A DNA stretch of 64,000 nucleotides from Escherichia coli (lineage in GTDB: Bacteria; Pseudomonadota; Gammaproteobacteria; Enterobacterales; Enterobacteriaceae): the NCBI RefSeq assembly GCF_030384885.1, contig NZ_CP128613.1. The stretch is one strand, 5' to 3'. The position numbers and the translations under genes were made by a program. The notes under the pieces were generated by a model, which was not told where the DNA came from, ran no database searches, and saw only the letters and a program-made list of their open reading frames with translations. Shown here one piece after another: positions 1 through 59,765 of this stretch. Numbering within the stretch: the stretch's first letter is position 1; each line of letters begins with the position of its first letter.

Positions 1-1488
<1,488 letters not shown>

Positions 1489-1492
1489 ACCT

Positions 1493-1792
1493 ATGGCGCT
1501 TACAAAAGCTGAAATGTCAGAATATCTGTTTGATAAGCTTGGGCTTAGCAAGCGGGATGCCAAAGAACTGGTTGAACTGTTTTTCGAAGAGATCCGTCGA
1601 GCTCTGGAAAACGGCGAACAGGTGAAACTCTCTGGTTTTGGTAACTTCGATCTGCGTGATAAGAATCAACGCCCGGGACGTAACCCGAAAACGGGCGAGG
1701 ATATTCCCATTACAGCACGGCGCGTGGTGACCTTCAGACCCGGGCAGAAGTTAAAAAGCCGGGTCGAAAACGCTTCGCCCAAAGACGAGTAA
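1493..1792 (+). CDS. ihfA: Integration host factor alpha subunit
   Basis: 99-aa [76 protein letters not shown]..., canonical IHF-alpha/HU fold sequence. Confidence 0.97.
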
Positions 1793-1804
1793 TCTGATCT
1801 AACT

Positions 1805-1834
1805 AAAAAGGCCGCTCTGCGGCCTTTTTTCTTT
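1805..1834 (+). terminator. Rho-independent terminator after ihfA (GGCCGC-TCT-GCGGCC stem plus T-run)
   Basis: aaaaaggccgctctgcggccttttttctttt directly after ihfA stop. Confidence 0.8.
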
Positions 1835-1892
1835 TCACTGTCGAAGAGTCACCGTAAAATCAACGCCATGACACTTCAGCAGAACGGATACC

Positions 1893-2873
1893 ATGCTGAC
1901 ACTTGCCCGCCAACAACAGCGACAAAATATTCGCTGGTTATTATGCCTGTCAGTTTTGATGCTGCTGGCGCTTCTCTTAAGCCTTTGCGCCGGTGAACAA
2001 TGGATTTCGCCAGGTGACTGGTTTACTCCTCGTGGCGAACTGTTCATCTGGCAAATTCGCCTACCACGTACGCTGGCTGTATTGCTGGTTGGTGCGGCGC
2101 TGGCTATATCCGGCGCTGTAATGCAGGCATTGTTTGAAAATCCTCTGGCAGAACCTGGACTACTTGGCGTCTCTAACGGCGCAGGCGTAGGGCTTATCGC
2201 CGCGGTATTGCTTGGGCAAGGGCAATTCCCAAACTGGGCACTAGGGCTGTGTGCGATTGCTGGCGCGCTTATCATCACTTTAATACTCTTACGTTTTGCC
2301 CGTCGTCATCTTTCGACCAGTCGGTTATTGCTGGCTGGTGTTGCATTAGGGATTATCTGTAGCGCACTAATGACGTGGGCTATCTATTTTTCCACCTCTG
2401 TTGATTTACGTCAGCTGATGTACTGGATGATGGGCGGTTTTGGCGGCGTAGACTGGCGGCAAAGTTGGCTGATGCTGGCATTGATACCCGTGTTGTTGTG
2501 GATCTGTTGTCAGTCCAGACCGATGAATATGTTAGCACTTGGCGAGATCTCGGCGCGGCAACTAGGTTTACCCCTGTGGTTCTGGCGCAATGTGCTGGTG
2601 GCAGCGACCGGCTGGATGGTTGGCGTCAGTGTGGCGTTGGCGGGTGCTATCGGCTTTATTGGTCTGGTGATCCCACATATTCTCCGGTTATGTGGTTTGA
2701 CCGATCATCGCGTATTACTTCCCGGCTGCGCGCTGGCAGGGGCGAGCGCATTGCTGCTGGCCGATGTTGTAGCGCGCCTGGCATTAGCTGCCGCAGAGCT
2801 GCCTATTGGCGTGGTCACCGCAACGTTGGGTGCGCCGGTGTTTATCTGGTTATTGTTAAAAGCAGGACGTTAG
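1893..2873 (+). CDS. btuC: Vitamin B12 ABC importer permease
   Basis: 326-aa highly hydrophobic ORF, FecCD-type permease sequence recognised as BtuC; followed by btuE and btuD. Confidence 0.95.
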
Positions 2874-2932
2874 CCGCAAAAGACGGTCTATGATTAAAAG
2901 CTAAGATTTTTACTGACCACCCAGGAGAAACG

Positions 2933-3484
2933 ATGCAAGATTCCATTCTGACGACCGTAGTGAAAGATATCGACGGTGAAGTGGCCACGCTGGAGAAGTA
3001 CGCCGGTAATGTGCTGTTGATTGTCAATGTCGCCTCAAAGTGTGGCTTAACGCCGCAATATGAGCAGTTGGAGAATATTCAGAAAGCCTGGGCCGATCGT
3101 GGTTTTGTGGTGTTGGGATTCCCGTGCAACCAGTTTCTGGAGCAAGAACCGGGCAGCGATGAAGAGATTAAAACTTACTGCACCACTACCTGGGGGGTGA
3201 CGTTCCCGATGTTCAGTAAGATTGAAGTTAATGGCGAAGGACGCCATCCGCTGTATCAAAAATTGATTGCCGCAGCGCCGACGGCAGTCGCGCCGGAAGA
3301 GAGCGGATTCTATGCCCGTATGGTCAGCAAAGGTCGTGCACCGCTGTACCCTGATGATATTTTATGGAATTTTGAGAAATTTTTAGTTGGCAGGGACGGA
3401 TTGGTCATCCAGCGTTTTTCCCCGGATATGACGCCGGAAGATCCCATTGTGATGGAAAGCATTAAACTGGCGTTGGCGAAATAA
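2933..3484 (+). CDS. btuE: Glutathione-peroxidase-family thioredoxin/glutathione peroxidase
   Basis: 183-aa ORF with GPx-family motifs ([26 protein letters not shown]); AGGAG SD; stop overlaps btuD start (TAATG). Confidence 0.95.
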
Positions 3485-4233
3485 TGTCTATTGTGATGCA
3501 GCTACAGGATGTTGCGGAATCAACCCGCCTTGGGCCGCTTTCTGGCGAGGTTCGGGCTGGGGAGATCCTGCATCTGGTGGGGCCGAATGGCGCGGGTAAG
3601 AGTACCTTACTGGCGCGAATGGCCGGAATGACCAGCGGTAAGGGAAGCATTCAGTTCGCGGGGCAACCACTGGAAGCATGGTCCGCAACAAAACTCGCGC
3701 TGCATCGCGCCTATCTTTCACAACAACAGACGCCACCGTTTGCAATGCCGGTCTGGCACTACCTGACACTGCATCAGCACGATAAAACGCGTACCGAACT
3801 ACTGAATGATGTCGCAGGGGCGCTGGCTCTTGATGACAAACTCGGACGTAGCACCAATCAACTTTCCGGCGGCGAATGGCAACGCGTACGTCTTGCTGCG
3901 GTGGTGCTGCAAATCACACCACAAGCCAATCCCGCAGGCCAATTACTACTTCTTGATGAGCCTATGAACAGTCTTGATGTTGCGCAACAAAGTGCGTTAG
4001 ACAAAATTCTGAGCGCGCTGTGTCAGCAAGGACTGGCGATTGTTATGAGCAGTCACGATCTCAACCACACCTTGCGTCATGCGCATCGGGCGTGGTTGCT
4101 AAAAGGTGGAAAAATGCTGGCCAGTGGACGCAGAGAAGAGGTGCTCACGCCGCCAAATCTGGCGCAGGCCTATGGGATGAATTTTCGCCGTCTGGATATC
4201 GAAGGTCACAGAATGCTGATTTCGACCATCTGA
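3484..4233 (+). CDS. btuD: Vitamin B12 ABC importer ATPase
   Basis: 249-aa ORF with Walker [13 protein letters not shown] signature LSGGEWQR, Walker B LLLLDEP. Confidence 0.95.
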
Positions 4234-4310
4234 TTTCATTAGTATCTTGAAAATCGGGTAATTACGACGCTAAATTAATGCAAGAATAAAAAACAGAGGA
4301 ACCGTACGGA

Positions 4311-4775
4311 ATGCGTTTCTGCCTTATTTTGATCACAGCACTGTTTCTGGCCGGGTGTAGCCACCATAAAGCACCGCCGCCAAATGCCAGACTTTCTGAT
4401 TCGATTACCGTTATTGCCGGTTTGAACGACCAGCTACAGAGCTGGCATGGCACGCCGTATCGTTATGGTGGCATGACGCGGCGCGGTGTGGACTGTTCGG
4501 GGTTTGTGGTTGTGACGATGCGCGATCGTTTCGATTTGCAGCTGCCCCGTGAAACCAAACAACAAGCCTCTATCGGCACGCAAATTGATAAAGACGAGTT
4601 GCTGCCTGGTGACCTGGTCTTTTTCAAAACGGGCTCCGGACAAAATGGTTTGCATGTAGGTATTTACGATACCAACAACCAATTTATCCACGCCTCTACC
4701 AGCAAGGGAGTGATGCGTTCCTCACTCGATAATGTCTATTGGCAGAAAAATTTCTGGCAGGCGAGACGAATCTAG
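4311..4775 (+). CDS. nlpC: NlpC/P60-family lipoprotein (peptidoglycan endopeptidase-like)
   Basis: 154-aa ORF with lipoprotein signal and lipobox (LFLAGC), NlpC/P60 catalytic Cys context (GVDCSGFV) and His (GLHVGIY). Confidence 0.93.
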   Translation: MRFCLILITALFLAGCSHHKAPPPNARLSDSITVIAGLNDQLQSWHGTPYRYGGMTRRGVDCSGFVVVTMRDRFDLQLPRETKQQASIGTQIDKDELLPGDLVFFKTGSGQNGLHVGIYDTNNQFIHASTSKGVMRSSLDNVYWQKNFWQARRI

Positions 4776-5021
4776 TATGTCGAAAAATGGACGGCGATGA
4801 TACATCTCCGTCCATTTACTCCTGAATACAGTAGTATTTTACAGACAAAAATACCGTATATGGATTATTCGTTTATAATCAGGATAATCTAATAAAAGGA
4901 CCCCTGAAAAAGTGGTTAACATGGAACAAATGAAAGTTACTCCTTCTGTAATTGTTATGTCTTATGGCCTCATCCCTTTTAGCCGGATACTGAAAAACAT
5001 CCTTCGAGAGGGACGGTTACC

Positions 5022-5735
5022 ATGAAGATTTTTTTGGAGAATCTTTATCGTTCTGATTGCTATTTCCTGCCGATAAGAGATAACCAGCAAGACCTTGTCG
5101 GCGTTGAGTTAATTACCCATTTCTCCAGTGAAGATGGTACGGTTCGTATACCGACGAGTCGGGTTATAGCGCAACTTACCGAGGAGCAACATTGGCAATT
5201 ATTTTCTGAGCAGTTGGAATTGCTAAAATCATGCCAACACTTTTTTATTCAACATAAACTCTTTGCCTGGCTTAATTTAACCCCACAAGTGGCTACTTTA
5301 TTATTAGACAGGGATAATTACGCGGGCGAACTATTAAAATATCCGTTTATTGAACTGTTGATTAATGAGAATTACCCGCATCTCGATGAAGGAAAAGATA
5401 ATCGCGATCTTTTGTCCTTATCGCAAATGTATCCCCTTGTGTTAGGTAATTTGGGCGCAGGCAATAGCACAATGAAAGCGGTTTTTGATGGTCTTTTCAC
5501 CCGCGTCATGCTGGATAAAAGTTTTATTCAGCAACAAATCACGCATCGCTCCTTCGAACCGTTTATTCGTGCGCTCCAGGCGCAAATTTCCCCATGTTGC
5601 AATTGCATCATCGCGGGGGGCATTGATACGCCAGAAATAATGGCACAGATTACCCCCTTTGATTTCCATGCTCTCCAGGGATGCCTGTGGCCTGCCGTTC
5701 CTGTAAATCAGATAACGACGTTGGTTCAGCGATAA
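5022..5735 (+). CDS. ydiV: Anti-FlhD4C2 factor, degenerate EAL-domain protein
   Basis: 237-aa ORF recognised as YdiV (MKIFLENLYRSDCYFLPIRDNQQDLVGVELITHF...); position after nlpC as in E. coli. Confidence 0.92.
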   Translation: MKIFLENLYRSDCYFLPIRDNQQDLVGVELITHFSSEDGTVRIPTSRVIAQLTEEQHWQLFSEQLELLKSCQHFFIQHKLFAWLNLTPQVATLLLDRDNYAGELLKYPFIELLINENYPHLDEGKDNRDLLSLSQMYPLVLGNLGAGNSTMKAVFDGLFTRVMLDKSFIQQQITHRSFEPFIRALQAQISPCCNCIIAGGIDTPEIMAQITPFDFHALQGCLWPAVPVNQITTLVQR

Positions 5736-5758
5736 CCCTCCTGTTTGCTGGTGTTTAA

Positions 5759-7234
<1,476 letters not shown>

Positions 7235-7237
7235 AGG

Positions 7238-7429
7238 CTACTTGGTCAATAGCAGCTTGCCAGCCTGAGTTTTACGGAGCAGATATTCTTGCCCGTCATG
7301 ATCGATAATCAGTTTGCCATCCGGACCTAACAGTGTCTGGCTGGTAATTCGCCGAATGGGCTGCGGGGAGGCGGTCTTGTGATTGGCATCCGTTTCAGGC
7401 GTGAGTTTTCTGCTATCCGTATAACGCAT
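7238..7429 (-). CDS. ydiE: HemP/HmuP-like small protein
   Basis: 63-aa reading frame [63 protein letters not shown] (internal ATG of the 72-aa track ORF); Fur-box-like sequence just upstream. Confidence 0.8.
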
Positions 7430-7440
7430 AAAAATTAATA

Positions 7441-7471
7441 ATAATTGATATAACAATGATTCTTATTATCA
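7441..7471 (-). promoter_or_regulatory. Fur-box-like operator in ydiE promoter region
   Basis: ataattgatataacaatgattcttattatc: AT-rich dyad resembling Fur consensus GATAATGATAATCATTATC, 12-40 nt upstream of ydiE start. Confidence 0.5.
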
Positions 7472-7560
7472 ATATTCTGGCGGGCCAGAGCAAGCAGTAA
7501 TTTGTTGAGAAGACAACAAGTTGCGCAGAAATGCCCATTCCGTCAGGAATGGGCACGCAT

Positions 7561-8607
7561 TCAGAAGCGGGTATCAACCGCAGAGGCGAGTTTTTCGACC
7601 AGGCGTTCGGTATCTTCCCAGCCCAGACACGGGTCGGTAATCGATTGACCGTAAGTGAGCGGCTGACCGCCGACGATTTTTTGCGTTCCTTCGCGCAGGA
7701 AACTTTCCGCCATAATTCCAGCAATCGCCGTAGAGCCATTGCGGATTTGCTGACAAATATCCTCACAAACTTCTAACTGGCGACGATGCTGCTTCTGGCA
7801 GTTGCCGTGGCTGAAATCCACCACCAGATGTTCAGGTAAATCAAACTCGTGCAACGTATCGCAGGCAGCGGCGATATCATCCGCATGGTAATTCGGCTTT
7901 TTGCCGCCACGCATAATAATGTGGCCATACGGATTGCCGCTGGTCTGATAGATGGTCATCTGACCATTTTTGTCTGGCGAGAGGAACATATGGCTGGCGC
8001 GGGCTGCGCGGATAGCATCCACGGCAATCCGCGTGTTGCCATCGGTACCATTTTTAAAACCTACCGGACAGGAGAGTGCCGAAGCCATTTCACGGTGGAT
8101 CTGACTTTCGGTAGTACGTGCGCCAATCGCGCCCCAACTGATTAAATCAGCAATAAACTGACCGGTCACCATATCGAGGAACTCAGTCGCGGTAGGGACG
8201 CCCAGCTCATTGACCTGTAAAAGTAATTTGCGCGCCAGCTCCAGACCGTGATTTACCCGATAGCTGCCGTTTAAATCCGGATCGGAGATTAGCCCTTTCC
8301 AGCCGACTACAGTTCGTGGTTTTTCAAAATAGGTGCGCATTACGATTTCCAGCCGTGACTGGTACTGGTTGCGCAGCGACTGCAGACGGGTGGCGTACTC
8401 CATTGCAGCGGTGAGATCGTGGATCGAGCAGGGGCCAATAATGACCAACAGTCGCTTATCTTCACCATTCAGTATTTTTTCAATTCTGCGGCGGGAGTCG
8501 GTGACATGGGTGGCGACGCCAGGCGTTACGGGATACCGTAGCGCGAGTTCGGCGGGCGTTACCAGGCTCTCAATACGCGCAGTACGGAGTTCGTCAGTTC
8601 TGTTCAT
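7561..8607 (-). CDS. aroH: DAHP synthase, tryptophan-sensitive (3-deoxy-7-phosphoheptulonate synthase)
   Basis: 348-aa ORF MNRTDELRTARIESLVTPAELALRYPVT..., class I DAHP synthase; TrpR operator upstream. Confidence 0.96.
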   Translation of the reverse strand: MNRTDELRTARIESLVTPAELALRYPVTPGVATHVTDSRRRIEKILNGEDKRLLVIIGPCSIHDLTAAMEYATRLQSLRNQYQSRLEIVMRTYFEKPRTVVGWKGLISDPDLNGSYRVNHGLELARKLLLQVNELGVPTATEFLDMVTGQFIADLISWGAIGARTTESQIHREMASALSCPVGFKNGTDGNTRIAVDAIRAARASHMFLSPDKNGQMTIYQTSGNPYGHIIMRGGKKPNYHADDIAAACDTLHEFDLPEHLVVDFSHGNCQKQHRRQLEVCEDICQQIRNGSTAIAGIMAESFLREGTQKIVGGQPLTYGQSITDPCLGWEDTERLVEKLASAVDTRF

Positions 8608-8750
8608 TACAAGTCTCAGAAATTTGTTGCTTCTACGGCAGGACTACCGGGAAGTGATGCGCATCACGATAAACCAATCGCAGCTGATTTCAAGTGCGAG
8701 GTGTGTCACACCTCGCCGGGTGGTTAGCATGATAACAAAAAAACAAGTTA

Positions 8751-26426: not shown

Positions 26427-26563
26427 CGTGTAATGGCTGCATGAAATAAACAATAAAATATAAATAACATTATCAGCCTGCTGACGGCTTGAAGAGAGTC
26501 ACAGTATCTTGTGCAACATTATTGGAAAGAGTGAGGGGCGAGGTAGCGAAGCGGAAAAATGTT

Positions 26564-26669
26564 AAAAAAAAGCCCATCGTGGGAGATGGGCAAAGACTAC
26601 ACACAGCAATTCGTTGTTTCACTCAGGGGATTTCCATGCTTATAAATCAATATGTTGATTTATAACCGT
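26564..26669 (-). ncRNA. rprA: RprA small regulatory RNA (RpoS translational activator)
   Basis: minus-strand sequence ACGGTTATAAATCAACATATTGATTTATAAGCATGGAAATCCCCTGAGTGAAACAACGAATTGCTGTGTGTAGTCTTTGCCCATCTCCCACGATGGGCTTTTTTTT matches RprA as I remember it, with terminal hairpin and U-tract; located in ydiL-ydiK intergenic region. Confidence 0.9.
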
Positions 26670-32259: not shown

Positions 32260-32360
32260 ACTATTCTTATCGCCCCTTCAAGAGCTAAGCCACTGTGAGT
32301 GCCGGAGATAAGCGCCGGATGGGGTAGAAACCCTTAAGCCTGTGATGCACAGACTTAAGG
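32260..32360 (+). ncRNA. rydB: Candidate RydB-like small RNA locus (boundaries approximate)
   Basis: ydiH-sufA intergenic region; 5' hairpin (gccgg-agataagc-gccgg) and terminator-like hairpin aaacccttaag-cctgtgatgcacaga-cttaagggttt followed by tcttatttct; RydB is known to map between ydiH and sufA, exact sequence not recalled. Confidence 0.45.
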
Positions 32361-39928: not shown

Positions 39929-41341
39929 TTACAGGACGTGAACAGATGCGGTGTTAGTAGTGCCGCTCGGTACCAGTGCACCAGAAACCATAACTACGAC
40001 GTCACCTTTGTGTGCCAGACCGCTCTGCAGAGCCAGTTCTTTACCCAGACGGTAGAAATCATCAGTAGAAGTGATTTCTTTAACCAGCTGCGGCACAACG
40101 CCTTTGCTCAGTACCAACTGATGAGCCGTTTTTTCGTTGGTGGTCAGTGCCAGGATGGTGGCATCCGGGAAGTATTTACGTACTGCACGAGCAGATTTAC
40201 CGCCCTGGGTAGCAACCACGATCAGCGGAGCATCCAGTTTTTCAGCAGTTTCAACCGCGCCACGGCATACTGCTTCGGTAATGCGCAGTTTACGGTTGTC
40301 ATTGTTGAACTCGAGACGGCTGTTCATAACGCGGTCGGTACGTTCGCAGATGGTCGCCATGATAGAAACTGCTTCCAACGGGTATTTACCTTTTGCGGAT
40401 TCACCAGACAGCATTACTGCGTCAGTACCGTCGAGGATGGCGTTCGCAACGTCACCGGCTTCTGCGCGAGTCGGGCGTGGGTTTTTGATCATTGAATCGA
40501 GCATCTGGGTCGCAGTGATAACGACTTTACGTGCACGGATACATTTTTCGATCATCATCTTCTGGGCGAAGATAACTTCTTCAACCGGGATCTCAACGCC
40601 CAGGTCGCCACGCGCAACCATGATGCCGTCGGAGGCTTCGAGGATTTCGTCGAAGTTGTTCAGGCCTTCCTGGTTTTCGATTTTGGAGATGATTTGGATG
40701 TTTTCACCACCGTGTGCTTTCAGATGCTCACGGATTTCGATAACGTCAGAACGCTTACGAATAAAGGAGGCAGCAACAAAGTCTACGCCTTGTTCGCAAC
40801 CGAAGATCAGGTCTTGTTTGTCTTTTTCAGCCAGTGCTGGCAGGGCAATGGAAACACCCGGCAGGTTCACACCTTTGTTTTCGCCCAGGTCGCCGTTGTT
40901 CAGTACTTTACAGATAACTTTGTTACCTTCAATAGCGGTAACTTCCATACCGATCAGACCATCGTCAACCAGTACGGTGTTGCCAACAGACAGGTCGGTA
41001 GTGAAACCTTCATACGTTACCGCAACCATTTCGCTGTTGCCGATAACAGATTTATCAGTGGTGAAAGTAAAGGTCTGACCGGCTTTCAGAGAAACGTCGT
41101 TACCGCCTTCCAGTTTCATAGTGCGGATTTCTGGACCTTTGGTATCAAGCAGGATAGCGGCAGTTTTACCGGTTTTGCTCATCACGTTGCGCAGATTCTG
41201 AATGCGCTGACCGTGTTCTGCATAGTCACCATGAGAGAAGTTCAGACGCATAACGTTCATGCCAGCGTCCAGCATTTTAGCTAACATCTCTTCAGATTCG
41301 GTTTTCGGTCCGATGGTGCAAACAATTTTGGTCTTTTTCAT
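39929..41341 (-). CDS. pykF: Pyruvate kinase I (fructose-1,6-bisphosphate activated)
   Basis: 470-aa frame from internal ATG ([44 protein letters not shown]...); track ORF carries a 72-codon N-terminal extension, which I reject. Confidence 0.96.
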
Positions 41342-41546
41342 GACAGTCTTAGTCTTTAAGTTGAGAAGGATGGGAGAAACTTGCTTTCTGGGCGCACTGC
41401 CGGAAAGCGAATCCGGTATTACGAAAGTGGTGGTGCCTCGCTCTAAGGATAGGTGACATCGAAAAAGCGTGCAGAGGAATGTGTGCTTGTGTCTCAGCCC
41501 AACGTGAGTGCCTGTTTTTGAGTCGTTGAGTTCTACAGTCCAAAGT

Positions 41547-41562
41547 GCTGAAACCATTCAAG
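41547..41562 (-). promoter_or_regulatory. Candidate Cra (FruR) operator upstream of pykF
   Basis: GCTGAAACCATTCAAG, 14/16 match to my recollection of the Cra consensus GCTGAAACGTTTCAAG, about 205 nt upstream of pykF ATG. Confidence 0.45.
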
Positions 41563-41897
41563 AGTCAATTGGCGCGCATTATACGCTGAAATTAATCCAA
41601 AAGGAAAACAAAAACAGCGTTTCAAAAAATATACAACTTGTAAGACAATAAATTGTTATCAAAGATTTAACGTTACAGGGAAAGGGTTACGCAAAAACCT
41701 CGTTGTTTGCGCAACGTCTGGTGCCTGGGTTGTCAGTGTGAGGATAAGTGAGAGTTCATCCGGTGTATAAATACATCATCGCTCAATTGCTACAGTGAAA
41801 ATAATTTATCGCGTTATTTGTCTGATTTTGTTTGGTTTTTGTTTAATTGGTTAGATTGATATATGCTGATAGTTGGCATGATAAATAGGTATAAAGA

Positions 41898-42107
41898 ATG
41901 GGAAACCGGACAAAAGAGGATGAACTGTACCGAGAAATGTGCAGAGTTGTCGGTAAAGTTGTGCTGGAAATGCGCGATCTGGGGCAGGAACCAAAGCATA
42001 TTGTTATCGCAGGCGTATTACGTACAGCATTAGCCAATAAACGCATTCAGCGCAGTGAGCTGGAAAAGCATGCGATGGAAACCGTCATTAACGCACTGGT
42101 TAAATGA
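41898..42107 (+). CDS. fumD: Small fumarase-like protein FumD (YdhZ)
   Basis: 69-aa ORF MGNRTKEDELYREMCRVVGKVVLEMRDLGQEPKHIVIAGVLRTALANKRIQRSELEKHAMETVINALVK. Confidence 0.85.
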   Translation: MGNRTKEDELYREMCRVVGKVVLEMRDLGQEPKHIVIAGVLRTALANKRIQRSELEKHAMETVINALVK

Positions 42108-42112
42108 CCATT

Positions 42113-42139
42113 CAGGATGAGGCGGTAAGCTTCATCCTG
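42113..42139 (+). terminator. Hairpin terminator after fumD
   Basis: caggatgag-gcggtaagc-ttcatcctg followed by atattctt. Confidence 0.55.
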
Positions 42140-42347
42140 ATATTCTTAGTTCAGTTGCAGTCCAGTTAATCATTCTAAATAACAACTGCTGAAATTATAC
42201 AAATTTCGGTATGTATTTTAATTTATAGCGCTAATGTTATTTTTATTATCTGTAATGAAAGTCACAAATAATTGTCGGATCAGTTAAATTCATATCAAAT
42301 GATAATAAATATCACTTCACTTATATTTTTTTTCTTTGTGTTTTTAA

Positions 42348-42361
42348 TTGATAACGATCAA
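42348..42361 (+). promoter_or_regulatory. FNR box (TTGAT-N4-ATCAA) upstream of ydhY operon
   Basis: TTGATAACGATCAA, perfect match to FNR consensus half-sites, about 200 nt upstream of ydhY ATG in an AT-rich region. Confidence 0.8.
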
Positions 42362-42562
42362 TGTTAAGAACTCAGAATAATCACATTATTTTTTCTCCTA
42401 ACCATAAAGGATTAGTTTATCAGCGTTAAATCTTTTCTCATACACTATCGGGTTAGGGAAAATATCTGGTGTTGGGGACAGAGTCAGCAGCGTATTAGTT
42501 GAATGCTTAATATCAGGCTGCTGAATTGTCAGCACTGTGTTTGCGAAGAGGATGCGAAATAA

Positions 42563-45312
<2,750 letters not shown>

Positions 45313-45324
45313 GGAATGGGTGAG

Positions 45325-45975
45325 ATGAACCATCAGGATGTCTTGCCGTTAGCGGAAATCAGCGAAATTGACGAGGCGAAGCGGCAATGGTTGCAGGGGA
45401 TGCGCCACCCCGTTGATACGGTAATTGAAGACATCACAGAACCAGAACCTGCTGAAATCCTGGCAGAGTTCATTCGCCAGCATTCTGCGGCTGGGCAGCT
45501 GGTGGCGCGCGCCGTGTTTCTCTCGCCACCCTATTCGGTTGCAGAAGAGGAACTGTCAGTTTTGCTGGAAAACATTAAGCAGAACGGAGACTACGCGGAT
45601 ATCGCGTGTATGACGGGAAGCCAGGATGATTACTATTACTCAACGCAGGCCATGAGTGAAAACTACGCGGCGATGTCTTTGCAAGTTGTGGAGCAGGACA
45701 TTTGTCGCGCTATTGCACACGCCGTTCGTTTTGAGTGCCAGACGTATCCTCGTCCTTACAAAGTCGCCATGCTGATGCAAGCGCCATATTACTTCCAGGA
45801 AGCGCAGATTGAAGCCGCGATCGCCGCGATGGATGTTGCACCTGAATATGCCGATATACGGCAGGTGGAGTCATCGACGGCGGTGTTGTACTTGTTTAGC
45901 GAGCGATTTATGACCTATGGCAAAGCTTATGGCTTATGCGAATGGTTCGAGGTAGAGCAGTTTCAGAACCCCTGA
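45325..45975 (+). CDS. ydhW: Uncharacterised protein YdhW
   Basis: about 216-aa acidic ORF; start chosen at second in-frame ATG with better SD spacing (the ATG at 45316 is also possible). Confidence 0.8.
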   Translation: MNHQDVLPLAEISEIDEAKRQWLQGMRHPVDTVIEDITEPEPAEILAEFIRQHSAAGQLVARAVFLSPPYSVAEEELSVLLENIKQNGDYADIACMTGSQDDYYYSTQAMSENYAAMSLQVVEQDICRAIAHAVRFECQTYPRPYKVAMLMQAPYYFQEAQIEAAIAAMDVAPEYADIRQVESSTAVLYLFSERFMTYGKAYGLCEWFEVEQFQNP

Positions 45976-46038
45976 AATTTCAGGGAGATGTCATGGATAG
46001 GGTGGACATTAGCAGCCACTGCATTAGGGGATAATCAG

Positions 46039-46707
46039 ATGTCCTTCACTCGACGCAAATTTGTTCTGGGGATGGGAACAGTAATCTTTTTTACTGGTTC
46101 TGCGTCTTCTCTGTTAGCGAACACGAGGCAAGAAAAGGAAGTTCGGTATGCCATGATTCATGACGAGTCACGGTGCAATGGCTGTAATATTTGCGCCCGC
46201 GCATGCCGTAAAACTAACCACGTCCCCGCTCAGGGAAGCCGTTTATCGATAGCACACATACCGGTCACCGATAACGACAACGAAACGCAGTATCACTTTT
46301 TTCGCCAGTCATGCCAGCACTGTGAAGATGCTCCTTGCATCGACGTTTGCCCAACAGGAGCGTCATGGCGTGATATGCAGGGGATCGTGCGGGTAGAAAA
46401 ATCGCAGTGCATCGGCTGCAGTTATTGCATTGGCGCTTGCCCGTATCAGGTTCGCTACCTTAACCCTGTCACTAAAGTGGCAGATAAATGTGATTTCTGC
46501 GCTGAGTCCCGACTAGCAAAAGGCTTTCCGCCCATTTGCGTTAGCGCCTGCCCGGAACATGCATTGATCTTTGGTCGCGAAGATAGCCCAGAAATTCAAG
46601 CGTGGTTGCAAGAAAATAAATATTATCAATATCAGCTACCTGGTGCCGGGAAACCGCATCTGTATCGCCGATTCGGTCAACATTTGATTAAAAAGGAAAA
46701 TGTATGA
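46039..46707 (+). CDS. ydhX: Tat-exported 4x[4Fe-4S] ferredoxin-like subunit
   Basis: 222-aa frame with twin-arginine signal (SFTRRKFVLGMG) and four Cys clusters (CNGCNICARAC, CQHCEDAPCIDVCP, CIGCSYCIGACP, CDFC...CVSACP). Confidence 0.88.
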   Translation: MSFTRRKFVLGMGTVIFFTGSASSLLANTRQEKEVRYAMIHDESRCNGCNICARACRKTNHVPAQGSRLSIAHIPVTDNDNETQYHFFRQSCQHCEDAPCIDVCPTGASWRDMQGIVRVEKSQCIGCSYCIGACPYQVRYLNPVTKVADKCDFCAESRLAKGFPPICVSACPEHALIFGREDSPEIQAWLQENKYYQYQLPGAGKPHLYRRFGQHLIKKENV

Positions 46708-47489
46708 ACCCGTCGCAACATGCTGAACAGTTTCAGAGCCAGTTGGTGAACTATGTGCCACAGTTCACTCCCGAATTTTGGCCGGTGTGGTTGATCATTG
46801 CCGGACTATTGCTGGTTGGGATGTGGTTGGTGCTGGGGCTGCATGCCTTGCTTCGTGCTCGTGGCGTGAAGAAATCAGCCACCGATCATGGTGAGAAGAT
46901 TTATCTTTACAGCAAAGCGGTCAGATTATGGCACTGGTCGAATGCGTTACTCTTTGTATTGTTGCTGGCAAGTGGGCTGATAAATCACTTTGCGCTGGTG
47001 GGAGCAACTGCGGTTAAAAGTCTGGTTGCGGTGCATGAAGTTTGCGGATTTTTGTTACTGGCATGCTGGCTCGGCTTTGTTCTGATCAATGCCGTTGGGG
47101 GTAATGGTCACCACTATCGCATTCGTCGTCAGGGTTGGCTGGAGCGAGCGGCAAAACAAACGCGATTTTATTTGTTTGGCATTATGCAGGGGGAAGAACA
47201 TCCTTTCCCGGCAACAACACAGTCTAAATTTAATCCCTTACAGCAGGTCGCCTATGTTGGTGTCATGTATGGATTGCTGCCGTTGTTACTATTGACGGGG
47301 CTGCTGTGTCTCTATCCGCAAGCCGTGGGAGATGTGTTTCCTGGCGTAAGATACTGGTTATTTCAGGCGCATTTTGCTCTGGCATTTATAAGCCTCTTTT
47401 TTATCTTCGGTCATCTTTATCTTTGCACCACGGGGCGTACGCCACACGAAACCTTTAAAAGCATGGTCGATGGCTATCACCGGCACTAA
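46704..47489 (+). CDS. ydhU: PhsC/cytochrome-b-like integral membrane subunit
   Basis: 261-aa hydrophobic ORF with conserved His residues in TM helices; ATGA overlap with ydhX. Confidence 0.88.
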   Translation: MNPSQHAEQFQSQLVNYVPQFTPEFWPVWLIIAGLLLVGMWLVLGLHALLRARGVKKSATDHGEKIYLYSKAVRLWHWSNALLFVLLLASGLINHFALVGATAVKSLVAVHEVCGFLLLACWLGFVLINAVGGNGHHYRIRRQGWLERAAKQTRFYLFGIMQGEEHPFPATTQSKFNPLQQVAYVGVMYGLLPLLLLTGLLCLYPQAVGDVFPGVRYWLFQAHFALAFISLFFIFGHLYLCTTGRTPHETFKSMVDGYHRH

Positions 47490-47492
47490 CGA

Positions 47493-48308
47493 ATGATCAT
47501 TACACGAGCAGACCTGCGAGAATGGCGTATCGGAGCGGTGATGTATCGCTGGTTCCTGCGCCATTTCCCACGCGGCGGTAGTTATGCCGATATTCATCAT
47601 GCACTTATTGAGGAAGGATATACGGACTGGGCGGAGAGTCTGGTTGAGTATGCGTGGAAAAAATGGCTGGCGGATGAAAACTTCGCGCATCAGGAAGTTT
47701 CTTCTATGCAAAAACTGGCCATAGATCCCGGAGGAGAGAGACCATTTTGCAGTCAGTTTGCCCGCAGCGACGATCATGCTCGCATCGGCTGTTGTGAGGA
47801 TAATGCCAGAATCGCAACTGCTGGGTATGCCGCGCAAATTGCCAGTATGGGTTATAGCGTGCGGATTGGAAGTGTCGGCTTTAACAGTCACATTGGCAGC
47901 TCCGGTGAACGCGCACGGGTTGCTGTAACCGGTAATTCTTCGCGGATAAGCAGCGCTGGAGATAGTAGTCGGATTGCGAATACCGGAATGCGAGTACGCG
48001 TTTGCACATTGGGTGAACGGTGTCATGTCGCCAGTAATGGTGACCTGGTGCAAATCGCCAGCTTTGGCGCAAACGCCAGAATTGCCAACAGCGGCGACAA
48101 TGTACACATCATTGCCAGCGGTGAAGATTCAACAATAGTGAGCACGGGCGTGGTCGACTCAATTATTCTCGGGCCAGGGGGAAGCGCCGCACTGGCATAT
48201 CATGACGGCGAAAGAGTTCGCTTCGCCGTCGCCATTGAAGGTGAAAACAATATTCGAGCCGGAGTCCGCTATCGCCTTAATGAACAGCATCAGTTTGTTG
48301 AGTGCTGA
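47493..48308 (+). CDS. ydhT: Uncharacterised protein with 15 tandem nonapeptide repeats
   Basis: 271-aa ORF; residues about 90-225 form 15 consecutive 9-residue units of pattern x-[R/H/Q]-[I/V]-x-x-x-G-x-x. Confidence 0.88.
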   Translation: MIITRADLREWRIGAVMYRWFLRHFPRGGSYADIHHALIEEGYTDWAESLVEYAWKKWLADENFAHQEVSSMQKLAIDPGGERPFCSQFARSDDHARIGCCEDNARIATAGYAAQIASMGYSVRIGSVGFNSHIGSSGERARVAVTGNSSRISSAGDSSRIANTGMRVRVCTLGERCHVASNGDLVQIASFGANARIANSGDNVHIIASGEDSTIVSTGVVDSIILGPGGSAALAYHDGERVRFAVAIEGENNIRAGVRYRLNEQHQFVEC

Positions 48309-48313
48309 TAGCT

Positions 48314-49924
48314 TTACATTTGATCAAACGAAAGACGCCGACGAGCACGGGATGCAGGCTTTACGACCGCCTGAGCCATCGCCTCACCAATTTCTGCACA
48401 TGCCGTAAGTCCCTGTACGAATGGCCGGTCGTGCATCAACCAGGGCAACGCGCCGAACGCTACGCGCCCACGAATTTCTTCGGGTTGCTGTAGCGTATAA
48501 TCTTCGCCAACATCCGGGATTTCATCGCCTGTTTTCTGTAATTGTTCGCGTAGCCCTGGGAAAGGAATGTCTTTCACTTTGAGCGGACGCTGCCCGCGGG
48601 CATCAATAAAAACGTCAAACGAGTAGCTATTGTTTTCCGTTTTCAGGACGGTGCGCGACTCATTAATTTCCATTTCGTAGTCTTCACCGAGGGCGAGAAT
48701 ATGAATGATTCCCGCTTCACGTAAGGCCAGTAGTCGACGAATAGACTCTGAAGGGATTGCCGCATAATTATCGATGAAAACCCGGGCAAGGCCTTTACTG
48801 AACCGTTTATGGTCGTGTTCATTCAGATGAGGAACAATTTCCTGTACGGCTTCATGCAGGCGCAGAATGACATAACGCCAGGGAACAGTATGTTTTTCTC
48901 GTTTATTGCGTTCGACTTCCTGGAGATTTTTTTCTGCCCAGTCGAATGGGTCGCGTTGTTTGCGCTCGGCAAACCAGGCTTGAGCAAAGGAATCGACATT
49001 CAGGCTCTCTAAGGCTATGCGTTGGCTCCAGTCTAGATCAGCAAATTTGATTTCCTCTACTATTAATTCGAATACTCGATCCAAAAGGCCCTCTTCGCCT
49101 TTTTGAATCTCCGCATTTAATGCCTGTTCAGTGACGATGTGTAAGGGCTCGTAGGGAATAGGGCAATAGAAATCGGCTTCCGGTAAAATACCCGTGCGTG
49201 ACATTAGCGTAATACTTAGCTTTTCACTTGTGTTATTGAGTTGATAAATAACATGTTGTTTATCATCTTCAATAAATGAACCATGTTGAATAGCCACTGC
49301 CATTGCCGCATCCAGTCCGCTCAAGGATGTTCCCATAATACCCACGTTACACGCATCAACCTTTGCTTCCATCAGGCCTGACCACGGGCTGGGAAAATAC
49401 GTTCTGGTTGCTTCTTCTTCATCAGGCCAGACGTGACCCGTCGCGATCACCGCTAAATCAAACGTCTCGATGGGTAAATCCTGATTTGTAGCGAGCATGA
49501 CGCCAGCATTTATAATTTTCAGATCGGTAACCTGGCATGATTCATAAACAGCCACTGCAAATTTTTGCTGTCGTGCCTGGTCTACTAATCGTAAAAATTG
49601 ATCGCGGAAATATTCGCCCAGCAGAATTCGCGGTAAAAACTGGCGATCGTGCAAGGTTTCTTTTTTAACGCCATAACGCTGGAGATGGCTGGCTTCTTGC
49701 TTTTGTAGCCATTCGAGATATGTACAAGAAATCGGCGGTATTTCAATACTGGCAATATTTGCCAGCATCAGTTTTGAGTTTTCCTCATCACTGTATGGCA
49801 TCCCGACACCGGCTTCGTCAGCCTGCTCGAAGATAGAAATAGAAAGTGGAGTTTGTTGCTGTAGAAGCGAGAATAAGGTGTAGATCCCCGTAGGCCCGGC
49901 ACCCACAATAGCAATTTTTTTCAT
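48314..49924 (-). CDS. ydhS: FAD/NAD(P)-binding oxidoreductase-like protein
   Basis: 536-aa ORF with N-terminal Rossmann motif (IAIVGAGPTGIYT). Confidence 0.9.
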   Translation of the reverse strand: MKKIAIVGAGPTGIYTLFSLLQQQTPLSISIFEQADEAGVGMPYSDEENSKLMLANIASIEIPPISCTYLEWLQKQEASHLQRYGVKKETLHDRQFLPRILLGEYFRDQFLRLVDQARQQKFAVAVYESCQVTDLKIINAGVMLATNQDLPIETFDLAVIATGHVWPDEEEATRTYFPSPWSGLMEAKVDACNVGIMGTSLSGLDAAMAVAIQHGSFIEDDKQHVIYQLNNTSEKLSITLMSRTGILPEADFYCPIPYEPLHIVTEQALNAEIQKGEEGLLDRVFELIVEEIKFADLDWSQRIALESLNVDSFAQAWFAERKQRDPFDWAEKNLQEVERNKREKHTVPWRYVILRLHEAVQEIVPHLNEHDHKRFSKGLARVFIDNYAAIPSESIRRLLALREAGIIHILALGEDYEMEINESRTVLKTENNSYSFDVFIDARGQRPLKVKDIPFPGLREQLQKTGDEIPDVGEDYTLQQPEEIRGRVAFGALPWLMHDRPFVQGLTACAEIGEAMAQAVVKPASRARRRLSFDQM

Positions 49925-50049
49925 TGTTACTTACCTGTACGCATTCTTTCGAATTTAGTGTTATCAGATAAGTTTGGTTGAAATTTTTAGAATTTGAGAA
50001 ATTTCAGACAGGGATGAAAAGGGCGCTAACCGCCCTTGGTTAAAATCAG

Positions 50050-50355
50050 TCAGGCGAGTTTTGCCTGATTGATTTGACTCAGTGGCTCATTGACATCGAA
50101 AACTTTGGCGACAACTTCCTCAACGCCGAGATTTTTCAGTCGGGCAGTATGTTTTTCCAGATAGGCAAGGGCGCTTTTTTCATCAGTGAAAAGGTAGATC
50201 CCACCGGCTTCGTGGTTCTTTTCACTTTCTGTCCATACCTTCCACAGAAAACCAGGTTCCTGATTAATCGACTCAGCAAGCGGTTTAAGCTGCTCAGCCA
50301 TTGCGTCGCCAAATGGGCCATTAAAAGCAAAATGAAGTTGTAACAAAGTTGCCAT
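50050..50355 (-). CDS. ydhR: Small Dabb/antibiotic-biosynthesis-monooxygenase-like protein
   Basis: 101-aa ORF; terminator hairpin downstream (aagggcg-gttag-cgccctt). Confidence 0.85.
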
Positions 50356-50462
50356 AGCGATTCTCCTTCTGATAACGCATACGAAGACAGTGTAAATCTT
50401 TTAACGTATTGGATACAGAGAAGAAACAGAGGGAAAAAGGAGAAGACCAGATTAAGAAAATC

Positions 50463-50539
50463 TGGTGCGTCCGAGTGGACTCGAACCACCGACCCCCACC
50501 ATGTCAAGGTGGTGCTCTAACCAACTGAGCTACGGACGC
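50463..50539 (-). tRNA. valW: tRNA-Val (anticodon GAC)
   Basis: minus strand GCGTCCGTAGCTCAGTTGGTTAGAGCACCACCTTGACATGGTGGGGGTCGGTGGTTCGAGTCCACTCGGACGCACCA: 77 nt, cloverleaf-compatible, encoded CCA; copy assignment valV vs valW inferred from gene order. Confidence 0.95.
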
Positions 50540-50543
50540 AGGA

Positions 50544-50620
50544 TGGTGCGTTCAATTGGACTCGAACCAACGACCCCCACCATGTCAAGGTGGTGCTCTA
50601 ACCAACTGAGCTATGAACGC
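50544..50620 (-). tRNA. valV: tRNA-Val (anticodon GAC)
   Basis: minus strand GCGTTCATAGCTCAGTTGGTTAGAGCACCACCTTGACATGGTGGGGGTCGTTGGTTCGAGTCCAATTGAACGCACCA: 77 nt, differs from its neighbour in acceptor and T stems; 4-nt spacer. Confidence 0.95.
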
Positions 50621-50928
50621 AACGTTGTAGGTGACAACGGGGACGAATATTAGCGGCAGAGTGGGAAGGTGGCAAGAGGCAAAACGTAATTTTCTGCGGT
50701 ATTTCGACCGTTTGCAGAGCTTTTAAGCAAATTGGCTATATTTTGTTGATTTGCAAGGGCGATTTTTATTCAGGATCGCATTTACATCTGACACAACCCA
50801 ATAATCTGTGTATCAGAGTTTAAACAGAGTTGTTTGCCACCATCTCAAAATCTGTCGTGGATAAATCCTCCGTAGCCTTTACACTTATGTAGCAATAAAG
50901 GCACACAGATGCAGCAAAGGAATAAATC

Positions 50929-52185
50929 ATGGGATCTGATGCGAAAAACTTGATGAGCGACGGGAACGTGCAAATTGTTAAGACCGGCGAGGTCATTGGC
51001 GCGACGCAACTTACTGAAGGTGAGTTAATTGTTGAAGCTGGCGCAAGAGCCGAAAATACCGTGGTCACGGGGGCCGGTTGGTTGAAAGTGGCAACCGGTG
51101 GGATCGCCAAATGCACACAGTACGGCAACAATGGCACGCTATCGGTCAGTGACGGTGCCATTGCCACAGATATTGTTCAGTCAGAGGGAGGCGCAATTAG
51201 TCTCTCTACGCTCGCTACGGTTAATGGCCGCCATCCAGAAGGTAAATTTAGCGTTGATCAGGGTTATGCCTGCGGTTTGTTGCTGGAAAATGGCGGTAAC
51301 CTGCGTGTACTGGAAGGCCATCGCGCGGAAAAAATCATTCTCGATCAAGAGGGCGGCCTGTTGGTCAATGGGACAACCTCAGTGGTCGTGGTAGATGAAG
51401 GTGGTGAATTGTTGGTGTATCCAGGTGGGGAAGCCAGCAATTGTGAGATTAATCAGGGCGGCGTTTTTATGCTGGCGGGGAAAGCCAGTGATACATTGCT
51501 TGCTGGTGGCACCATGAATAATCTCGGTGGTGAAGACTCTAACACTATTGTTGAGAATGGAGCCATTTATCGTCTGGGGACGGATGGCCTTCAGCTCTAT
51601 AGTTCCGGTAAGACGCAAAACCTGTCCGTTAATGTGGGTGGTCGGGCTGAAGTGCATGCTGGTACGCTGGAAAACGCGGTAATACAAGGTGGGACAGTGA
51701 TCTTGTTGTCACCCACCAGCGCGGACGAAAATTTTGTCGTAGAGGAAGATCGCGCACCGGTTGAACTGACCGGGAGTGTTGCATTACTGGACGGCGCTTC
51801 AATGATTATTGGCTATGGCGCAGATCTGCAACAATCATCGATTACTGTACAGCAGGGCGGTGTGTTGATTTTCGATGGCAGTACGGTAAAAGGTGACAGT
51901 GTCACTTTCAATATTGGTAACATCAATCTGAATGGTGGAAAACTGTGGCTGATCACTGATGCGGCAACGCATGTGCAACTGAAAGTGAAACACCTGCGCG
52001 GAGAGGGAGCGATTTGCCTGCAAACCAGTGCGAAAGAGATTTCACCTGACTTCATCAATGTTAAAGGGGATGTTAACGGTGATATACACGTTGAGATAAC
52101 CGATGCCAGTCGGCAAACTTTGTGTAACGCACTGAAATTACAGCCAGACGAAGACGGGATTGGCGCAACGCTCCAGCCTGCGTAA
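50929..52185 (+). CDS. ydhQ: Autotransporter-passenger-like beta-helix repeat protein lacking a translocator barrel
   Basis: 418-aa Gly/Asn/Val-rich ORF with imperfect repeats typical of AIDA-type passenger beta-helices; no C-terminal beta-barrel-length region. Confidence 0.87.
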   Translation: MGSDAKNLMSDGNVQIVKTGEVIGATQLTEGELIVEAGARAENTVVTGAGWLKVATGGIAKCTQYGNNGTLSVSDGAIATDIVQSEGGAISLSTLATVNGRHPEGKFSVDQGYACGLLLENGGNLRVLEGHRAEKIILDQEGGLLVNGTTSVVVVDEGGELLVYPGGEASNCEINQGGVFMLAGKASDTLLAGGTMNNLGGEDSNTIVENGAIYRLGTDGLQLYSSGKTQNLSVNVGGRAEVHAGTLENAVIQGGTVILLSPTSADENFVVEEDRAPVELTGSVALLDGASMIIGYGADLQQSSITVQQGGVLIFDGSTVKGDSVTFNIGNINLNGGKLWLITDAATHVQLKVKHLRGEGAICLQTSAKEISPDFINVKGDVNGDIHVEITDASRQTLCNALKLQPDEDGIGATLQPA

Positions 52186-59212: not shown

Positions 59213-59253
59213 TCCATTTCACTCCAGACCCTAACTTCAGCTCCTGCAAAATC

Positions 59254-59274
59254 GCAAGGTAAACGTTTGCCTTT
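59254..59274 (-). promoter_or_regulatory. PUR-box-like operator in purR leader
   Basis: minus strand AAGGCAAACGTTTACCTTGC, about 45-60 nt upstream of purR ATG. Confidence 0.6.
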
Positions 59275-59510
59275 ACACACCTTACGCACAACAAAAGTGT
59301 TGCGGTACGCCGGAAAAACGACACGGAGCGTCAGGAAGGGGTCAATGGCCAGTACGCAAATAGTGTAAGCGTGGAATTTTGGCCGATCTTGACGAAAAGG
59401 GGAAGTGGTAAAAACACTTATCATTATAAATGACGGGAGATTTTTTCATCACAGTGTGTAAAAATGCGTAATATCACTTTTTGTGTGGTAATAAAAAAGG
59501 AGAAAACTTG

Positions 59511-59600
59511 ATGAGCACCGACCTTAAATTTTCACTGGTAACAACGATTATCGTCCTCGGTTTGATCGTAGCCGTGGGTTTGACTGCCGCGCTGCACTGA
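59511..59600 (+). CDS. ynhF: 29-aa single-TM small membrane protein
   Basis: ATG preceded by AGGAG SD (aaaaaaggagaaaacttg ATG); encodes MSTDLKFSLVTTIIVLGLIVAVGLTAALH; below the size cut-off of the supplied ORF track. Confidence 0.75.
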   Translation: MSTDLKFSLVTTIIVLGLIVAVGLTAALH

Positions 59601-59765
59601 TTTCCTCTCGAGGGAGCGCGTTCTCCCTCGCATCTCCTTCCTGTTTGTTAGCAAAATGGCAAAAGTGTTTTCTCTTTTTGTTATTTTCATTTTTTTGTGA
59701 TTGCTGTCATGCTTTCGCCACTTTAATGAATATCGCGTAATGACGCGAAGAGGTGGAGATAAGGC

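Follow-up and report, generated by a model that had tools for sequence, protein, structure and literature searches.

Is a tRNA locus that lacks an integrase, a duplicated tRNA 3' end, and conspicuously foreign DNA a site at which nothing has ever inserted? The question is raised by a tandem pair of tRNA-Val genes in a stretch of 64,000 nucleotides from an Escherichia coli chromosome (contig NZ_CP128613.1), referred to here as the window. A preliminary description of the window, made from its sequence alone, had placed two 77-nt tRNA-Val(GAC) genes 4 nt apart, had noted compensatory differences between their stems, and had considered the locus unoccupied, with neither an integrase, nor a direct repeat of the tRNA 3' end, nor foreign-looking DNA on its flanks.

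Exactly two tRNA genes were detected in the 64-kb window by ARAGORN, both encoding tRNA-Val with the anticodon GAC, and both scored above the gathering score of 29 for Rfam family RF00005. Each gene is 77 nt long and encodes its own CCA end. ARAGORN, Rfam, and the sequence itself agreed with the preliminary description on the identity, coordinates, lengths, and spacing of the pair, and they assigned it to the minus strand, which that description had left unstated. The pair and its downstream neighbor are as follows.

50544-50620, minus strand: valV, tRNA-Val(GAC), the promoter-proximal gene (ARAGORN; Rfam, 70.1 bits; 77/77 nt identical to K-12 b1665)
50540-50543, minus strand: intergenic spacer between valV and valW, 4 nt, UCCU in the transcript (from the sequence)
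50463-50539, minus strand: valW, tRNA-Val(GAC), the distal gene (ARAGORN; Rfam, 69.6 bits; 77/77 nt identical to K-12 b1666)
50050-50355, minus strand: ydhR, neighboring gene, arranged as in K-12

From valV through the spacer to valW, identity to the valV (b1665)-valW (b1666) region of E. coli K-12 MG1655 was complete (158/158 nt), and it remained complete from 78 nt upstream of valV, a region that includes the -35 and -10 elements and the leader, through to the start codon of ydhR. On the chromosome, the locus is flanked by ydhQ and ydhR within the mdtK-pykF region, and both neighbors are the same as in K-12, as judged from the annotation of K-12 and of a near-identical genome. The nearest match to the whole 64-kb window was E. 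coli 2013C-4282, with six differences; the gene annotation used for the window is the RefSeq annotation of the genome that differs from it by 6 nt over 64 kb. A 2-kb piece around the pair matched 5,425 of 5,426 complete E. coli genomes and was 100% identical in strain 2013C-4282. We regard it as nearly certain that the feature is the chromosomal valV-valW operon of E. coli, which encodes the cell's two tRNA-Val(GAC) genes. The products of valV and valW, which we take to be the tRNAVal2B and tRNAVal2A of the older literature, have both long been known. The operon itself has already been well studied, and it is ordinary apart from the lineage-specific genes that lie directly behind it. In K-12, valV and valW are the two isotype-2 genes out of seven valine tRNA genes (Agrawal et al. 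2014, PMC4176162).

The RefSeq annotation of the near-identical genome shows no integrase at any point in the 64-kb window and lists only named housekeeping and core genes there. Patterns of 20 and 25 nt from the tRNA 3' end, with up to three mismatches allowed, recovered only the two genes themselves from the window. Elsewhere in the window, blastn-short returned no copy of either 3' end longer than 11 nt, and Smith-Waterman local alignments of the 3' end over ±20 kb did not score above shuffled controls. At the boundary on the pykF side (41200-42700), a search with all Rfam families (E ≤ 10) found no tRNA or att remnant, its matches being noise to unrelated families. No attP-like match to the 3' end of valW was found in 50,697 phage records, queried both with the pair and with the 3' half of valW plus its trailer; the phage matches consisted solely of phage-encoded tRNAs and generic T-arm similarity. 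The absence of an integrase and of a direct repeat of the tRNA 3' end was thereby borne out, and the signs that the preliminary description had named as speaking against it, a duplicated 3'-end fragment and an integrase remnant nearby, were both missing from the window.

Among the phage records, "Escherichia phage 503046" (CP025887.1) contains the locus at 98.5% identity and was considered as a possible prophage at valV. It was rejected because the record (1-23083, unannotated) appears to be chimeric chromosomal DNA, in which ydbH-tynA-feaB, phage tail genes, and IS100 are joined to the region from ydhV to ydhQ, including valV-valW, with the junction inside ydhV. This record should not be taken as a phage that carries valV-valW.

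Within the species, the uninterrupted 501-nt locus was present in 5,417 of 5,426 complete genomes, and the presence/absence polymorphism that marks a tRNA-linked island was therefore not seen. The weakest of the eight genomes without an intact locus, strain CEC96047 (NZ_AP026104.1, 12164-13503), was examined as a candidate for an island at this site; it carries instead an IS3-family element just upstream, with one tRNA-Val(GAC) gene left.

Comparison with other genera gave a different view of the same locus. Relatives were found by scanning species-representative genomes for a 43-nt core common to both genes, which yielded at least 120 loci, and gap sizes were derived from tBLASTN matches and the positions of the tRNA genes. 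Yersinia aldovae, Serratia marcescens, Erwinia psidii, Morganella psychrotolerans, and Acerihabitans arboris carry mdtK, then the tRNA-Val cluster, and then pykF, with 0.65 to 1.3 kb between the outer genes and no other genes in the interval. The corresponding distance in E. coli is 10,884 bp, so that about 9 kb sits where a tRNA-linked island would. DNA homology between E. coli and its relatives runs from the conserved promoter through valW, ends at about 50454-50460, and resumes at about 41371-41379, just upstream of pykF (at 41498-41562 in the case of Cedecea). In the other direction, homology upstream of valV ends at about 50655-50722. Two features of E. coli fall outside the homologous stretches.

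41380-50458, no strand assigned: segment of about 9 kb particular to E. coli and close relatives, containing ydhR, ydhS, ydhT, phsC (ydhU), ydhX, ydhW, ydhV, ydhY, fumD (ydhZ), and ynhH (annotation and synteny; no integrase and no flanking repeat)
50929-52185, plus strand: ydhQ, an adhesin-like gene with AIDA repeats, divergent from the tRNA promoter (annotation)

The 9-kb segment starts about 5 to 40 nt past the CCA end of valW, and ydhQ occupies the space from mdtK to valV, which measures only 150 to 350 nt in most relatives. The GC content of the segment is 0.470, compared with 0.496 for the window (flanking range, 0.470 to 0.487). Such a mild reduction explains why the segment did not look foreign by eye. 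AT-rich intergenic edges, with a GC content of 0.32 to 0.40, were found at 41342-41897 and 42108-42562; the latter, with a GC content of 0.319, separates fumD from ydhY within the lineage-specific block. The statement that the locus is unoccupied and free of foreign DNA can thus be upheld in one respect only. No mobile element is present there today, and the missing integrase and repeat, together with the intact locus of nearly all E. coli genomes, indicate no recent one. The 9 kb and ydhQ, however, are lineage specific when set against the five genera.

Other Enterobacteriaceae carry different genes on both sides of the cluster, including LysR regulators, an alpha/beta hydrolase, a permease, an aminotransferase, an SDR, and an MscS channel, as well as a TibC-like glycosyltransferase with a 2,176-aa autotransporter-type open reading frame (ORF). 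Among 20 ORFs scanned from the variable segments beside the cluster in eight relatives, there was no integrase. The block found in E. coli is itself mosaic. In Escherichia albertii (7435-8616), ydhR is followed directly by ydhT, without ydhS, and in Citrobacter werkmanii (3216-4811) and Enterobacter cloacae (6325-7908), a ydhS homolog (65 to 69% identity) lies beside valW, without ydhR.

Two further arrangements were recorded among the relatives. In Enterobacter sp. Bisph1 (609-8427), a TibC-like heptosyltransferase and the 2,176-aa ORF lie directly downstream of valW. The ORF has weak (26 to 30%) repeated similarity to E. coli YdhQ, and genes for AIDA-type adhesins therefore recur at this tRNA locus, in differing positions. 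Cedecea neteri (3986-7247) and Enterobacter sp. Ag1 have a third tRNA gene, full length and of the valV type, 3 to 4 kb after valV-valW and immediately upstream of pykF. The DNA that separates this third gene from valW encodes an alpha/beta hydrolase and a LysR regulator, and in Ag1 a FAD-binding protein as well, which means that the insert is bracketed by whole tRNA genes, without an integrase.

The locus had been read as a virgin attachment site, at which nothing ever inserted and whose flanks are ancestral core genes. Such a history would agree with the missing integrase and tRNA 3' repeat, with the near-universal conservation of the locus in E. coli, and with a flanking GC content close to the average of the window. 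It is nonetheless highly improbable and already contradicted by the span from mdtK to pykF (0.65 to 1.3 kb in five genera, compared with 10.9 kb in E. coli), by a break in homology only a few nucleotides past the CCA of valW, by the other, unrelated genes that border the cluster at either end in further Enterobacteriaceae, and by the presence of SPI-2 or SPI-22 in the same interval of Salmonella (PMC3158058; bioRxiv 10.1101/188599). Alternatively, the ydhR-fumD block could be a degraded island that entered at the valW 3' end by means of an integrase and has since lost both the integrase and the att repeats. Its start, some 5 to 40 nt from the tRNA gene, is the classical position of a tRNA-linked island; its GC content is slightly low and its edges are AT-rich; and the insert between valW and an extra full-length valV copy in Cedecea and Enterobacter sp. 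Ag1 also points in this direction. Against this origin, the annotation contains no integrase remnant, the tRNA 3' end is not repeated even at chance-level stringency, the ORFs scanned in the eight relatives include no integrase, the phage records offer no attP-like counterpart of the valW 3' end, and the gene content of the block is a mosaic when E. albertii, Citrobacter, and Enterobacter cloacae are compared. We therefore consider a degraded island unlikely. The mosaic pattern is better fitted by piecemeal gain and loss, through homologous or illegitimate recombination, than by a single integration. Our reading of these sequence comparisons is that the tRNA cluster lies in a long-lived variable interval, in which E. 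coli has fixed old additions without integrases on both sides, ydhQ on one and ydhR-fumD on the other.

Integrase-bearing islands linked to tRNA genes are found in E. coli at, for example, selC, pheV, leuX, and thrW. As at those sites, the extra DNA behind valW starts immediately 3' of the tRNA gene. In contrast to them, the valW segment lacks an integrase, a repeat of the 3' end, and polymorphism among strains. A likeness in position comes from Salmonella. SPI-2 of Salmonella enterica occupies the ydhE (mdtK)-pykF interval beside tRNA-valV (PMC3158058), and SPI-22 of Salmonella bongori, an island with a type VI secretion system, occupies the same interval beside the same tRNA gene (bioRxiv 10.1101/188599). 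The E. coli block shares with these islands, whose description we take from the literature, both the interval and lineage-specific DNA that abuts the tRNA. The Salmonella cargo is a type III or type VI secretion system (plus ttr), whereas that of E. coli consists of the putative oxidoreductase genes ydhR-ydhY and fumD, and the E. coli block is about 9 kb long and fixed in essentially all E. coli.

How the pair is expressed can be approached through K-12, from which the operon, promoter, leader, and trailer of the present strain do not differ. Upstream of valV, the following features were placed.

50647-50675, minus strand: sigma-70 promoter, with -35 TTGCCA at 50675-50670, a 17-nt spacer, and -10 TAATAT at 50652-50647 (consensus scan)
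50621-50640, minus strand: 5' leader (K-12 primer extension, PMC2190699, transferred through sequence identity)

In K-12, valV and valW are cotranscribed from a sigma-70 promoter (-35, 5/6; -10, 4/6), and primer extension detected two starts 18 to 19 nt upstream of valV (Mohanty & Kushner 2007, PMC2190699). The UCCU spacer is without an A/U-rich RNase E site, RNase P splits the dicistronic transcript while making the 5' ends, independently of RNase E, and RNase II and PNPase remove the trailer (PMC2190699). The two starts, both at a C and about 18 to 19 nt upstream of mature valV, map to about 50639-50640 in the window, a coordinate obtained by counting. The -10 element is followed by a GC-rich discriminator, TCGTCCCC, and the block TTGCC(A)/TTGCA(A)-N17-TAATAT-TCGTCCCC is nearly invariant in all 17 Enterobacterales compared, with TAATATCCGTCTCC in Morganella. 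The promoter is probably of the stable-RNA type, with stringent-type control. Given the identity to K-12, we infer the same transcription starts and RNase P processing in the present strain. A stable-RNA-type sigma-70 promoter would drive a dicistronic transcript starting about 19 nt upstream of valV, RNase P would cut at each mature 5' end, removing the leader and separating the tRNAs, and RNase II and PNPase would trim the 3' trailer exonucleolytically. Because the 4-nt UCCU gap offers no A/U-rich RNase E site, it would be RNase P that does the separating. The same organization and processing have been described for leuQ-leuP-leuV, a tRNA-only operon with short spacers that are not A/U-rich, separated by RNase P without RNase E and relieved of its trailer by PNPase and RNase II (PMC2190699); it differs in having three leucine tRNA genes and in lying at another locus.

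Termination at this operon in K-12 is reported to be Rho dependent, with no recognizable intrinsic terminator (PMC2190699). The terminator scan of the window gave one candidate structure behind valW.

about 50446-50466, minus strand: trailer hairpin ACCAGAUU-UUCUU-AAUCUGGU, which engages the terminal ACCA of valW and precedes a pyrimidine/U-rich tract

The hairpin has a predicted dG of -9.4 kcal/mol (z = -5.6 relative to shuffled sequences). In an alignment of six sequences, 93.9% of cells were paired, compared with 32 to 43% when the partner strand was slid, and three pairs had changed on both sides. The structure is kept in Escherichia, Citrobacter, Enterobacter cloacae, and Pseudescherichia (dG, -9.4 to -17.9 kcal/mol); the last three have a more stable form (-14 to -18 kcal/mol), with a stem that reaches into GCACCA/UGGUGC. 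It was absent from Cedecea, Serratia, Yersinia, and others compared. As predicted, this covarying hairpin with its U-rich tract resembles a weak intrinsic terminator, which is at odds with the Rho-dependent account. By sequestering the CCA, it may be a real intrinsic terminator or a control element for the 3' end; none is described in published work on K-12.

The 3' part of valW also gave a match on the opposite strand, to Rfam RF02194 (HPnc0260; 112.1 bits, gathering score 59) at 50339-50501 (plus strand). HPnc0260 was originally reported from Helicobacter pylori as an antisense RNA. Where the alignment is reliable, it corresponds to the T arm and acceptor strand of valW in reverse complement; what remains is A-rich and of low information. 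A consensus scan of 50200-51100 found no promoter-like site on the plus strand. We did not retain the match as an antisense RNA, as it is probably due to an antisense-tRNA similarity in the model. Rfam matches elsewhere in the window included RprA (118 bits, 26562-26669, minus strand), RydB (83 bits, 32272-32332, plus strand), and STnc540 (67 bits, 1734-1892, plus strand), which overlaps the 3' end of ihfA. The "sRNA" STnc550 (396 bits, 59213-59603, plus strand) spans the annotated 29-codon gene cydH (about 59511-59600) and is hence at least partly the mRNA of a small protein.

The two tRNA genes are not copies of one sequence. They differ at six positions (5, 7, 51, 65, 67, and 69 of the 77-nt sequence), and when cloverleaf pairs were assigned from the Rfam tRNA alignment, these resolved into three base pairs, each altered on both sides, in keeping with the compensatory changes noted earlier.

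Pair 5:68, acceptor stem: U-A in valV, C-G in valW
Pair 7:66, acceptor stem: A-U in valV, G-C in valW
Pair 50:64, T stem: U-A in valV, G-C in valW

The acceptor stem of valV thus reads GCGUUCA/UGAACGC and its T stem GUUGG/CCAAU, and those of valW read GCGUCCG/CGGACGC and GGUGG/CCACU. The two genes share the same D arm, anticodon arm, variable loop, T loop, and discriminator A73. Six positions drawn at random would make up exactly three of the 21 stem pairs with a probability of about 5.6e-6.

Both variants recur in other genera. Among the matches listed, ten sampled Enterobacteriaceae outside Escherichia (Citrobacter werkmanii, Citrobacter sp. FP75, Enterobacter cloacae, three more "Enterobacter" isolates, Superficieibacter, Cedecea, Pseudescherichia, and Pluralibacter) carry a gene of the valV type and, after it, one of the valW type, both identical to their E. 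coli counterparts (77/77), with divergent flanks and a spacer of 4 to 17 nt. This exact identity indicates that the pair is old and selectively maintained, with both variants under purifying selection and unhomogenized. In E. albertii, valV has one base change in the D loop and the spacer is TATT. Yersinia, Erwinia, and Acerihabitans carry a related V-like gene (GCGUUCU...AGAACGC) together with W-type genes; Serratia and Photorhabdus have W-type copies only, identical and in tandem; and Morganella has a single W-like gene. Judged by these sequences, the pair is an old duplication, retained as two distinct isodecoders across the Enterobacteriaceae.

It might be argued instead that one of the genes is a decaying duplicate, a nascent tRNA pseudogene whose stem differences reflect drift, as valV falls short of valW by three G-C pairs and is predicted to fold less stably (-27.6 compared with -31.4 kcal/mol). 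Yet all six differences are compensated pairwise, the two genes score equally with the tRNA model, and in K-12 each of the two tRNAs has been detected and seen to be processed (PMC2190699). The persistence of both exact sequences across genera, although the spacer varies, effectively refutes decay, to which we assign almost no probability.

For the retained pair of isodecoders, ValRS would charge both tRNAs, and both would read the codons GUC and GUU; we have assumed that the two are functionally equivalent. A less orthodox possibility, which we hold to be rather improbable, is that the isodecoders are nonredundant, each acceptor- and T-stem variant being selected for a property of its own, or that a genuine control function resides in the trailer hairpin. 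The selected properties could include stability, the order of RNase P processing, modification, or escape from a tRNA-targeting toxin or nuclease. Nonredundancy could be suggested by the fact that the variants stand 4 to 17 nt apart and are still distinct and individually invariant, unlike the identical tandem copies of Serratia and Photorhabdus.

Our findings reidentify a textbook tRNA operon, and their value is that of a calibration case. An integrase, repeats, and a strong compositional skew were all absent, and this was insufficient for calling a tRNA site "unoccupied." The comparison with outgroups alone revealed the roughly 9 kb behind valW, and ydhQ before valV, as additions to the hot spot that in Salmonella holds SPI-2. 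The lasting coexistence of two distinct isodecoders in one operon bears, modestly, on how selection acts on bacterial tRNA genes.
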